A stretch of 64,000 nucleotides of DNA from Thainema sp. (GTDB lineage: Bacteria > Cyanobacteriota > Cyanobacteriia > Phormidesmidales > Phormidesmidaceae): contig JBQLZK010000029.1 in assembly GCA_052168235.1 (NCBI GenBank), forward strand, positions 16,744 to 80,743. Reading direction: 5' to 3'. This document shows, piece after piece, positions 49,642 to 57,579 of the stretch (within the stretch, counting starts at the first letter, position 1; every line of letters starts with the position of its first letter). Under the pieces are notes generated by a model. That model was not told the origin of the DNA. It was given only the letters and a program-made list of their open reading frames with translations, and made no database searches. Made by a program: the position numbers and the translations under genes.

Positions 49642-52600
49642 ATGTCTCAGCAACCCCATGAACGTAGTCACAACCATTCTGATGATTCATTAACTCCTCT
49701 TGGTCATCAAAATCCGCTTGGCGTGCATCATGGGCTGGGACAACTGGGTCTACAAACCAAAGGTTTAGCAGGTGGCTCCTCTCTTTCTATCCTCGATCCA
49801 GATATTTTCTTCCCCAATGGCCTACCGGAGATTGATTTATCTAACGATGAAGTTACTCCGGCGCATCAATCTGCTCCATCATCTCAATCAGAACAATCAA
49901 CCTCTACTCCTTCATTCATTCAGCCTCAACGGACTGAGCATAGCCAGAGCCGTCAAACAGCTATAAATCAATCACTTCAGCAACAGAGCAGACAGCCAAC
50001 TCATCAGCTTAATAAACAACCTAGTAATCAAGCAACTAACTCAACTAGTCAATTACAAAGTAATCCGTCAAACGTCCCAACTATCCAACCTAGTTTAGAT
50101 AATGCACCGGATCAACCTCCGGTAAATCAGGCTAATTCTGCGCCATCTCCTCACCCCATTCAGCGCATCCTGAACGATCAGCCAGAAATAATACCTCAAT
50201 CAGCTCAATCACTAGAGCAAACTCAACCCGCAGCAGAGAGTTCTTCTCCTCCCACAATCCAGGCTAAAGAGATTACGCCTGAATCAAATTCTGCTGAATT
50301 AAGTGCGCCGAACCAAGCACCCCATCTATCAGCGAAACCTATACAGTCTAAGCCGATTGAAGCTGTAGCAAAGGCTCAATCCTCTCGTAAACAACAGTCT
50401 TCAAATCCCCCCAAAAAAGGCACAGAAAAGCTAACGCATACTGATATTCAGCGCTACTTTGATCCTCAGCCTCAAACTTTATCAGAAAGTAGCTTCAGCG
50501 ATCGTTCAGTTAGCGATTCGAGTGAGCAGGTTGTTCAAGCTCAATCATTCACTGATGAAACCAATTCGGATAATTCCAGTTCGCCAAATACTGAATTGGG
50601 ATCGGCGGGCGATGCTCACCCTACGGATAACCTAGATTTAGGAGGTGCGATCGCACCTGCCCAGCCATCTTCAAGTGCTATGGCCCAGAGATTGGTGGGC
50701 AATGTCCATCCTACACAAATAAGTTCAGGAGATGCGATCGCACCTGCTCAGCCATCACTAACAACCAGTGAGCAACAGATATCTCGATCAGCTTCAGAGC
50801 CTGTCAGTCCTGCTGATCAACAAGCAGATCATGATTTTGCCGCATCAGATAGCACTAGCCACTCACAAGAGCTATCAGCTACTACACCAGAAGCTTTACA
50901 GCAGGAACCGTCTATCCAGCGTGCTGCTTCTACATCTGACAGTTCATCTACACCAGAAGCTTCACAGCAAGCACCGTCTATCCAACAAGCTGCTACTGTA
51001 TCTGATGATTCATCACAGGTCAATCCAAATCATCAGCCATTAGCAACAACTACAGCTTCCGAAGCTAATAAGACCAGCTCCAAAAAAGAGACTGATGTGA
51101 GACTTGATCTCGCTTCCCATAGCAGCTCTAGCGATCAGGCCGACGCGATCATTAATCGCAAAGCCACACCCTCATCAACTTCAAATGATTTAATCGATAC
51201 AGTAGAAAATTCTTCTTCATCGACTAGTATCAGCTCTACAAATGAGTCTATTTCTATTCAGCGAGAGCCGGAATCTTCCCAGACAAACGATAGCACTAGG
51301 CCAGAGTCTCATCCTTTCCCAGCTATTAATCCAGCGCCGCAAAATACGGTCAACCGCTCAGCCGATGAGCAATCGACCTCAGTAGCTACACCGTCAATAG
51401 CATCCGAATCATCAGAACCAAAATTGCCAGAGTCAGGGGCGCAACCACCTTCCTCAACTCAGAGAAAGACTGAAAGCAATCCAGCGCCTAGTCCAGCGAC
51501 TCGTCAAGAGCGCTCCTTTTTGCAGCGCTATTTTTCACCTGAACCAAAGCCCTCATCATCAATTTCAGCTAGTGCAGATTCTCCACAACCTAAACCTTTA
51601 AGTTCTAGTCAAGCTTCCAATAATCCACCAGCCAATGAACAGCCAAGCAACCAGCAAAATCCTGAAATAGCTTCTGTCTATGAACTAGAGCCGATCATCA
51701 ATCGCTCAGTAGCACAACCAAATCTTTCGCCTGTTGCAGAATCGATTGAACAATCTTCACTCACAAACGCAGAACCCCACGCTGACCAAATTCAGCGTCA
51801 AGAATCATCAGCCAGTAGTGATATCGGTTCTACAGAAGTGCGATCGCACATCTCCCCAACCCAATCGTCTGAACATCAGGGCATCCCTATCCAACAGCAG
51901 TCGCTGACAGATAGCTCGGGTACAGAAGTAGAAGTGCGATCGCAACCCCAGCACTCTATTCAACAAGACACTGATATAGCAGCAGCTACTTCTGAACCGC
52001 ATACACCGTCGCAAATACAGCAAGAGCCAGAGAATCAACTTGAACAGGTTAATTCATCTACCGAATTATCGGCTACATCAGATAATCAGCCTTCTATTCA
52101 AGCTCAGCTTGAGTCAAGAAATATACTAGAAAACAATCAAATCGATCAGCAAAATAATCAGTTAGCTCGTTCCGCCCAGATTAATTTAGATCAAGTCAAG
52201 ATTCAACAACAGTCTGCCCCAGATAGCATCAACAGATTAAGTTCAATTCCAGAACCACACAATATCTATTCAGAAGCAGATGACACAGCAAAAGACCAGA
52301 TAATAGAAGAAAATCTAGAACCCACAACATCTACAAATCAACCTGTTGATTCGATACAACTTAAATCTGATACAGCGACACATCAAAGTATTAGTTTCAT
52401 ACAAGCCCAAACAGATATATCTAGTCATGAATCTGTTAGTCAGACGCAACCTCAAACCCTAACGAGTCAGCCAGTTAAGCCAATTCAAAAAGTTGGCAAT
52501 GCTGTAAATCGGTTGATGCGATTTTTTGTGAACCAGGTCAATCCGTCCCCTACAAATCAGACCAACCAACTCGATCAGACAGCAGCAGCAGAAGTCCAGC

Positions 52601-57579: not shown

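Follow-up and report, generated by a model that had tools for sequence, protein, structure and literature searches.

A giant disordered protein punctuated by short motifs in the tape-measure slot of a predicted cyanobacterial contractile injection system

A stretch of 64,000 nucleotides from the cyanobacterium Thainema sp. (assembly GCA_052168235.1, contig JBQLZK010000029.1, positions 16,744 to 80,743; hereafter the window) contains an open reading frame (ORF) of 2645 codons, which starts with ATG, has no internal stop and is called here the giant. It occupies the slot of a tape-measure gene, and its product combines conserved ends with a variable, acidic, disordered middle and with sites of the form [ILV][QN][RKA], indicated as phiQR, about every 50 residues. 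Judged from their database matches, the surrounding genes form the tail module of a Streptomyces-like contractile injection system (CIS). On balance, we favour the explanation that, in this CIS of lineage II type, the giant is fixed at the baseplate hub and extends into the tube lumen as a disordered protein resembling a tape measure. That it acts as a ruler of particle length is doubtful, and that the count of its units of about 50 residues sets this length is the least certain part of the proposal. Coordinates of all features are collected in Table 1.

Ser (452 residues, 17.1%), Gln (323, 12.2%), Ala (256, 9.7%), Pro (230, 8.7%), Thr (228, 8.6%) and Glu (177, 6.7%) are the main constituents of the giant protein, which has no Cys, only 46 Phe, Tyr and Trp among its 2645 residues (1.7%) and a net charge of -185 (133 Lys and Arg versus 318 Asp and Glu). 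A signal peptide and membrane segments were looked for at the N-terminus, which is polar, and by Kyte-Doolittle hydropathy, and none was found; no membrane segment is expected because the highest 19-residue mean reaches only 0.93. These figures bear out a first-pass annotation of the window, which had described a protein rich in S, Q, T, P and E, free of Cys, poor in aromatic residues and devoid of signal peptide and transmembrane helices.

The tendency to disorder was evaluated by composition and hydropathy only for residues 1-2379, and also by AlphaFold2 for residues 2380-2645 (266 aa, alignment of 32 rows). When the protein was cut into 26 windows of 100 residues, the charge-hydropathy criterion classed 23 as disordered, and the longest stretch free of Pro measures 63 aa. 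The AlphaFold2 model has a mean predicted local distance difference test (pLDDT) of 54.3, with 145 of the 266 residues below 50, and contains three short helices only: a confident one at the C-terminus, and two weak ones on the motifs containing W, in blocks with a pLDDT of about 55-65. As judged from Pro content, charge-hydropathy and the model of residues 2380-2645, the giant does not show the long, mainly alpha-helical centre of tape measures, and the non-helical character attributed to it by the first-pass annotation is confirmed for the parts examined.

In Pfam, the whole protein matched no family at E <= 0.01 and its ends none at E <= 10; NCBIfam and PHROGs returned no match. No DUF4157 (PF13699), enzymatic or other recognisable domain was found in these three collections, and the C-terminus consists of a single helix. 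When the C-terminal 266 aa and the profiles A2 and A7 were compared with the PDB, no CIS chain was retrieved at E <= 10, and searches of solved structures with the same 266 aa and with profiles of the C-terminal helix, of the neighbouring protein orf88 and of the chaperone gave chance-level matches or none. The ESM Atlas matches of the giant belong to cyanobacterial and Chloroflexota clusters without names.

The enrichment of the motif in the giant was judged against 1000 residue shuffles. The word [ILV][QN]R occurs 29 times, versus 2.0 +/- 1.4 expected (shuffle maximum 8), [ILV]Q[RK] 23 times versus 2.4 +/- 1.5, IQR 14 times versus 0.5, and [ILV]QA 19 times versus 4.6 +/- 2.1. No such excess is seen for the reversed word R[QN][ILV] (4 versus 2.0), so that phiQR is a directional motif and not an effect of composition; 29 of the 77 Arg residues fall within [ILV][QN]R. 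Recent duplication does not explain the motif, because tandem-repeat arrays hold only 4 of the 51 phiQR sites. These are separated by a median of 44 and a mean of 49 residues (range 7-134), and their spacing is more even than chance (coefficient of variation 0.53 versus 0.96 for random placement; none of 5000 random placements was as regular). The dozens of motifs and the periodicity suspected in the first-pass annotation are therefore real, while its interval of 25-50 residues was slightly low.

Pooling 451 sites from 24 orthologues produced a logo with S/T at position -1, I (48%), V (32%) or L (20%) at position 0, Q (93%) at +1, Arg at +2, S/Q/K at +3 and an enrichment of D/E at +5. Sites are more regularly spaced than random in 14 of the 17 orthologues having at least 10 of them, and their number correlates with orthologue length (r 0.76-0.90, n = 24, the sequences being kin and not independent). 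Among 37 further family members, 30 contain at least 3 [ILV]QR words at 3 times or more the number expected from composition, with a typical excess of 10-30 fold; in the member from an Anaerolineae genome, 6 sites are found in 345 residues of a sequence otherwise rich in Pro and Ala. A second small word, (I/L)QRYF(D/S)P, with the family consensus FRxxLQxYFxP, occurs twice in the giant, at 50446-50469 and 51520-51543 (aa 269-276 and 627-634).

The N-terminal residues, about 60 in number, are conserved and PLG-rich: the pattern LGHxxPLG...LG...SLSILDxxxF(F/Y)PxGFP was recognised by eye at the N-termini of 23 of the 24 complete ORFs, and G21, P25, G44, L51 and F56 are invariant in the alignment. 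The C-terminal region is made of elements recurring in the order LPxVLxPLGVLxxLP, one or two copies of IPxxWSxLxDLV, a phiQR followed by (I/V)QA, and the terminal helix. The first of these is the PITVLRPIGILQSL motif, whose consensus in alignment A4 is LPxVLQPLGVLxPLP. In the helix, which is presumed to be an anchor, nine positions (E, L, E, Y, R, R, L, E, R) are invariant in 32 rows. Between its ends the giant aligns poorly, with 17-21% identity to all but its nearest relative, the orthologue of locus L004. With the latter, 2359 positions could be aligned at 71.1% identity, leaving 339 gapped residues, and the ratio of nonsynonymous to synonymous substitution rates (dN/dS) is 0.51 overall, 0.42-0.80 across the middle and lowest, 0.30, in the last 145 codons. 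Motif residues are identical in 122 of 138 cases, versus 1555 of 2221 elsewhere (Fisher p 9e-7), and 39 of the 51 sites are retained. This pattern of dN/dS and identity points to a chain under weak purifying selection, stronger on the motif and the C-terminus, with a length free to drift. An artefactual ORF, or an artefact of composition, was considered and rejected on the basis of the conservation in 32 loci, the dN/dS of 0.51 and the reversed motif not being enriched.

In order to describe the family, the last 266 residues of the giant were compared by HMMER with 1.84 billion representative proteins; 29 were found at E <= 0.001, and all of them end in LELLAQE(I/V)YxLLRQRLxxEQER(H/R)G. A scan of one genome per species, queried with alignment A3, identified 32 related loci (L numbers), 28 of them in cyanobacteria, including Leptolyngbya, Leptothoe, Adonisia, Stenomitos and Vasconcelosia, three in entries named 'uncultured bacterium' and one in an Anaerolineae. 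Since 9 of the 32 loci end at a contig edge, complete ORFs are 23, or 24 with that of the window; the orthologues are 1018-2520 aa long, compared to 2645 aa for the window protein. Within a sample of 401 cyanobacterial genomes, a match was present in 23 (the own genome included), representing 17 of 156 genera; in one family, 14 of 45 genomes were positive. Named members are reported as 'hypothetical protein', except for one odd automatic name, and no precomputed Pfam domain is associated with 50 of the 51 rows listed, the remaining one, P0065, carrying PF25823. One member, P0035 with 2024 aa, is annotated in Leptolyngbya boryana, a genetically tractable organism; the orthologues of Leptolyngbya sp. 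PCC 7375 (L021) and of Stenomitos frigidus ULC029 (L025) measure 2050 and 1174 aa, respectively. According to these matches, the giant defines a family, so far unannotated, of filamentous cyanobacteria, with at least one Chloroflexota member.

The genomic position of the giant is almost constant. The cis7 gene lies directly downstream of its orthologue in all 32 loci, and cis5 directly upstream in 22 of the 23 loci with complete ORFs, the exception, L017, being a second copy in one genome; VgrG is found 3' of cis7 in 28 of the 32. In the window, intergenic gaps are as short as 20 nt after cis5 and 34 nt before cis7, and no further large ORF was found in the CIS cluster. Farther upstream lie two paralogous genes, chapA and chapB, coding for a chaperone-like protein and a tail assembly chaperone, respectively. 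The end of chapB resembles the programmed -1 frameshift sites of phage G/GT genes: the sequence NCG GGG GAR, with a run of five G, and a -1 continuation into the DUF6760 frame (GGV(L/I)(S/G)YP...) are present in all 11 loci with chapB (the window, L004, L005, L025-L027, L029-L031, L033 and L034). Phage tail chaperones show this G/GT arrangement, and the lambda G/GT pair acts on the tape measure. A tape-measure position, as claimed by the first-pass annotation, is thus recovered: 3' of chaperones with a conserved putative -1 frameshift and 5' of the tube initiator, followed in most relatives by VgrG. The same annotation had stated that no helical tape measure is present here; PF19268, the canonical CIS tape measure, was indeed not found in the genome, which is 99.99% complete, a weak blank as no match was obtained in control genomes either.

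The small gene orf88 codes for an 88-aa conserved protein whose helical end is related to the C-terminal helix of the giant (BLASTP E 6e-4; hhalign probability 76%, E 2.2e-5 over 31 columns). In 22 of the 23 loci with complete ORFs, tblastn placed a match to it immediately before cis5, and 21 could be aligned, ending in ...FCDR(I/V)YxLLxxDLxxQQERxxGYGRR. The alignment of the two ends suggests that two proteins of the module probably bear the same terminal peg. Matches of orf88 to 'transcriptional regulator' entries were at chance level (PHROG 1124, E 0.0068; PDB 3KKD, E 0.26). For Afp6, Chen et al. (PMC6899500) list a TetR-like label. orf88 might be the Afp6/Cis6 counterpart, in which case its weak regulator matches would echo that label.

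A further line of evidence connects the motif to DUF4157 (eCIS_core) proteins, the presumed cargo of extracellular CIS (eCIS). The own genome holds five of them, plus one fragment. When its 5291 ORFs of at least 150 aa were ranked by [ILV]QR excess, the giant was first (22 versus 1.39, Poisson p 3e-19), and DUF4157 proteins were second and fifth; ranks 3 and 4 resemble, by appearance, ordinary folded enzymes. In the five leaders preceding the DUF4157 domain (1018 residues in all), [ILV]Q[RK] was counted 12 times versus 2.2 +/- 1.4, a value reached in 0 of 2000 shuffles, whereas behind the domains it is not enriched (5 versus 3.4, reached in 508 of 2000 shuffles). Of the first-pass claim that such motifs occur in the linkers of DUF4157 proteins, the enrichment therefore held, and the location had to be corrected to N-terminal leaders, upstream of the domain. 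In 27 leaders from five related genomes, 1.25-2.37 sites per 100 aa were found, pooled by genome, and leaders are often organised in repeated units such as SIQREALPEEEEELQTKPL. In the DUF4157 loci L043-L072, from genomes G401-G405, leader units such as (S/T)(I/V)QRE(A/T)(M/L)PEEEEELQ(T/M)KPL were observed; genome G401 has 28 DUF4157 matches. No description of a phiQR motif was found in literature searches centred on DUF4157. The PROCIS preprint (10.64898/2026.05.27.728243) reports that two DUF4157 cargo proteins depend on their disordered N-terminal domain to be loaded into the lumen of the tube, that an AAA+ ATPase is required, and that no conserved sequence is found in CIS cargo signals; for PVC and Afp cargo signals, none was detected according to PMC11297309.

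Under the favoured explanation, the C-terminal helix, common to orf88, would dock in the cavity of spike, cis7 and cis5, in the manner of phage tape measures and of the Cis6 plug, the chain would run up the tube lumen from the baseplate, and the N-terminal motif would meet the last tube ring or the cap. Docking, path and N-terminal contact are proposed by analogy with phage tape measures, with Cis6 and with Tme, a large protein of Streptomyces davawensis. The phiQR sites would be short linear motifs read by one CIS component, either the chaperone, the tube lumen or the loading ATPase, and the chain would serve as a thread for tube building, to be expelled on contraction. For Anabaena, Afp and PVC, PMC8894136 describes a lumen of negative charge, from which a polyanionic chain might be easily expelled, the motif Arg providing the sole regular positive contact. 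A prediction of the complex between the chapA domain (alignment A5) and residues 2268-2342 of the giant, which include three phiQR sites, scored 0.00 in a run without controls and speaks neither for nor against a contact.

The lumen of a CIS is about 4 nm wide, and its rings rise by about 4 nm each. With the former value, a single fully packed chain (about 280 kDa) would occupy about 27 nm, and three chains about 81 nm fully packed or about 200 nm at 40% filling; with the latter, 51 sites, one per ring, correspond to about 200 nm. The last figure is in the size class of related cytoplasmic CIS, whose length is 217-365 nm (PMC12998442). The CIS of S. coelicolor, the closest solved system, falls in this class too: its particles have a uniform length of 268 nm, and yet, for the tape measure, 'the corresponding gene is absent' (PMC12237407). 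By applying the empirical eCIS coefficient of 0.22-0.23 nm per residue (PROCIS preprint), about 570-606 nm would be obtained for the giant. The most elaborate version of the proposal, a disordered ruler coded by short linear motifs, in which each unit of about 50 residues would offer one phiQR to a chaperone or tube ring and the same site would tag DUF4157 cargo, is judged unlikely.

Several observations weigh against a tape-measure role. Searches of Pfam, the PDB, NCBIfam and PHROGs related the giant to no tape measure, Cis6 or solved chain by sequence, and where examined it is predicted to be non-helical, versus the mainly alpha-helical centre of eCIS tape measures. Two genes, orf88 and cis5, are interposed between the chaperones and the giant, unlike the usual phage order. 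The presence of the giant in the particle is a prediction from genomic data. The relatives counted are kin, so that the counts are not independent, and paralogy links the five DUF4157 proteins of the own genome. As estimated from the alignment, 339 gapped residues between orthologues at 71% identity are loose for a precise ruler. Orthologues L027 and L029 carry one [ILV][QN]R each: in the 2109-aa protein of the former (L027:3857-10186), runs of (T/A)VQP(Q/E) units, with 23 VQP words, stand in place of phiQR, and no obvious substitute is seen in L029. The motif thus appears dispensable in at least two lineages, and this loss, together with the change of length between close relatives, cuts against a simple equation of the motif with an essential contact. 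A co-variation of the motif between giant and cargo was sought and not seen, since the genomes of L027 and L029 (G401 and G402) keep phiQR in their DUF4157 leaders and have one site in each giant. Of the first-pass tape-measure reading, in conclusion, the slot, the chaperones, the absence of helicity and the motif shared with DUF4157 proteins stand, and the presence in the particle and its lumen, the setting of length and the partners of the motif remain conjectural.

Four alternatives were considered. The giant could be an ejected payload like Tme, loaded at the baseplate end and shot out, so that the chain or its peptides act in or on the target, with the length being set otherwise. Tme is a published precedent: according to PMC11126660, it has 2247 aa, is about 70% disordered, is encoded by the largest ORF immediately upstream of the baseplate genes and co-purifies with spike and tube initiator. 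The motif shared with presumed-cargo leaders, and a loosely constrained length, would also suit a payload. We nevertheless consider it unlikely, as the giant has no DUF4157, membrane helix, enzymatic or other recognisable domain, as its conserved parts, two ends and three short motifs, fit an assembly role better than an activity on the target, and as frameshifting chaperones lie upstream. The phiQR sites may otherwise be substrates rather than contacts, in a variant which may coexist with the favoured explanation: the DUF4157 domain, resembling an HExxH metallopeptidase, would cut before the hydrophobic residue, freeing cargo from its leader and dicing the giant into acidic peptides of about 50 residues, for tape-measure processing, lumen clearing or peptide release. 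This would agree with the motif being enriched only N-terminal to the peptidase-like domain (12 versus 2.2) and not after it, with HELTH being intact in the DUF4157 domains inspected, and with the logo, in which S/T at -1, I/V/L at 0, Q at +1 and R at +2 would suit a hydrophobic P1' preference. Such a preference is typical of thermolysin-like enzymes, and the lambda tape measure gpH, which is processed, offers a precedent. Roles in 'toxin loading, release, maturation' were proposed by Geller et al. (PMC8213781). Cleavage is however quite unlikely: the literature found contains no demonstrated peptidase activity of DUF4157, the domain is reported as dispensable for loading in the PROCIS preprint (10.64898/2026.05.27.728243), and the computed results do not separate cleavage from binding.

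The position between cis5 and cis7, which is that of cis6 in Afp, PVC and Anabaena, raises the possibility of a Cis6-type spike plug with an overgrown tail, where the helix would seal the spike cavity and the chain would be a passive filler or entropic spacer. The helix is common to the small orf88, and in Anabaena three Cis6 copies plug the spike and send a flexible loop into the lumen, according to PMC8894136. We hold this very unlikely, given that no solved chain was matched at E up to 10, that conservation extends to the N-terminal motif, at a distance of 2600 residues from the helix, and that motif residues more constrained than their surroundings, and regularly spaced, are unexpected of a passive filler. 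Finally, the giant might not belong to the particle at all, being a cytoplasmic assembly hub, a regulator, or a surface polymer rich in Ser, Thr and Pro riding in the operon. Its composition is like that of mucin-like linkers, and the evidence for its incorporation is indirect; very little credence is given to this possibility, in view of the missing signal peptide and membrane segment, of the short intergenic gaps (20 nt to cis5, 34 nt to cis7) and of the fixed place in a structural module in 32 loci from two phyla.

Comparison with known systems places the giant closest to tape measures, as a disordered counterpart. Phage tape measures of the lambda gpH type, with gpG/gpGT, share with it the -1 frameshift chaperones upstream, the place before hub and spike genes, the rank of largest ORF in the module, and conserved ends around a variable middle; the giant differs in not being helical, in the interposed orf88 and cis5, and in having short linear motifs instead of heptad-like repeats. 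YscP and FliK, partly disordered secretion rulers of an unrelated machine and with no known sequence relation to the giant, embody the same idea: the chain is extended and mostly unfolded, its ends are functional, and a tube is scaled to its length. Afp14, Pvc14 and Alg14 (CIS_TMP, PF19268) resemble it in their presumed baseplate-anchored role in the lumen and in being the sole large non-enzymatic ORF of the module. The PROCIS preprint (10.64898/2026.05.27.728243) shows that Alg14 acts as a ruler, at about 0.229 nm per residue, and describes a mainly alpha-helical centre in the eCIS tape measures compared, whereas the giant is Pro-rich, disordered and without sequence match to them. Homologues of afp14 are, according to Chen et al. 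(PMC6899500), generally absent from lineage II.

Tme, as described in PMC11126660, is like the giant longer than 2000 aa, about 70% disordered, encoded by the largest ORF directly upstream of the baseplate genes, and part of the same broad CIS lineage; an N-terminal DUF4157, predicted transmembrane helices, coiled coils and a C-terminal EndA-like nuclease are found in Tme only. The Cis6/Afp6 plug of the thylakoid-anchored CIS of Anabaena (PMC8894136) also lies between cis5 and cis7 and presumably has one end in the spike cavity and a flexible part in the lumen; it is small, the 2645 aa of the giant do not fit its size, and the giant shows no similarity to solved chains. Sle1 and Sle2, from the phage-tail-like particles of Streptomyces lividans (PMC13277306), are a tape-measure-like cargo and its DUF4157 partner, tied to an Afp5-like tube adaptor in the characterised lineage nearest to that of the window; Sle1 has a predicted long coiled coil, a globular helical domain and a membrane hairpin, and its gene precedes that of the DUF4157 partner instead of occupying the interval from cis5 to cis7. 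The giant is nearest to a tape measure in its supposed working, yet shares neither sequence nor helicity with tape measures, and has therefore been filed as a disordered, motif-punctuated occupant of the tape-measure slot.

The family described here is a concrete candidate for the tape-measure role in the cyanobacterial cousins of Streptomyces CIS. A motif-coded ruler, if it existed, could be the tape measure 'missing' from lineage II CIS, and its length principle would be unlike that of helical tape measures; the natural range of orthologues, from 1018 to 2645 aa, makes the question testable. In the shared phiQR, CIS cargo may have its first loading or processing signal recognisable in sequence; if phiQR directs loading, it could find use in engineering such particles.

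Table 1. Features of the giant and of the surrounding predicted tail module, in window coordinates
Feature	Position	Strand	Remarks
Cap / tail terminator (Pvc16_N)	43537..44079	+	
Sheath	44154..45869	+	closest solved chain PDB 8BKY, E 2.8e-109
Three gp19-type tube paralogues	46122-46619, 46695-47177, 47195-47686	+	
chapA, chaperone-like, chapB paralogue	47655..48251	+	C-terminal domain 63-95% identical in 19 orthologue rows
chapB, tail assembly chaperone	48264..48635	+	PHROG 508, E 2.4e-6
DUF6760 frame (PF20546)	48578..48778	+	putatively entered from chapB by -1 shift
GCG GGG GAG, candidate -1 slip site	48621..48629	+	two codons 5' of chapB stop
orf88, 88-aa conserved protein	48781..49047	+	helical end related to C-terminal helix of the giant
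cis5-like inner tube adaptor	49085..49621	+	PF06841, E 6e-37; TIGR02241 above its cut-off
Giant ORF	49642..57579	+	2645 aa, disordered, acidic, 51 [ILV][QN][RKA] sites
N-terminal motif LTPLGHQNPLG...LG...SLSILDPDIFFPNGLPE	49690..49830	+	aa 17-63; 23/24 complete ORFs
PITVLRPIGILQSL motif	55654..55695	+	aa 2005-2018; P[LI]G[VIL]L word in 16/24 complete ORFs
First IPTQWSSLxDLV motif	56803..56844	+	aa 2388-2401; weak predicted helix
Second IPTQWSSLEDLV motif	57043..57084	+	aa 2468-2481; W nearly invariant
C-terminal amphipathic helix LELLAQEIYSLLRQRLAIEQERHG	57451..57549	+	aa 2604-2636; pLDDT 94-96; family signature
cis7-like tube initiator (CIS_tube)	57614..58108	+	PF19266, E 1.2e-21

The assignment of the module to a Streptomyces-like CIS relies on matches of uneven quality. 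The chain closest to the sheath, 8BKY, is listed merely as 'Phage tail sheath protein', with no organism given in the match table; we take it to be the sheath of a Streptomyces CIS. For cis5, the best CIS-specific match, CIS5_fam, reached 72.7 bits, far under its cut-off of 260, and cis7 matched in the PDB the 'tube initiator' 8KEA (E 4.6e-8) and 9GTP, a 'LysM domain-containing protein' (E 4.2e-7). NCBIfam accessions adjoining the CIS1 and CIS5 models were tried for CIS6: NF053771 turned out to be an unrelated family, and NF053768 corresponds to CIS12. A G+C-rich hairpin followed by a T run, at 46027-46045 (+), just 3' of the sheath gene, is a possible attenuator between sheath and tube genes.

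Genes of the injection system are found in no fewer than three separate places of the genome. Downstream of cis7, where VgrG is found in most relatives, the window contains, at 58132-60489, a BrnT/BrnA toxin-antitoxin pair, an unknown ORF and a Fic gene; VgrG and a DUF4280 (PAAR-like) gene are located on another contig (C62:35456-37850), and a Baseplate_J and CIS12-like stretch on a third (C6:77868-79466). The product of 17030-18553 (+), 25 kb upstream of the tail module, has 507 aa and combines an AAA domain with a winged-helix variant domain (PF22977); it may be a loading ATPase of the Cis15 type, and a stretch 26% identical to it lies about 2.6 kb past VgrG in L017. In a Stenomitos-like group, the DUF6760 frame and orf88 are separated by a gene (L025:4088-5743) for a protein of 551 aa, which has hydrophobic stretches resembling membrane segments, and the same interval, of about 1.8 kb, is present in L026, L029-L031, L033 and L034.

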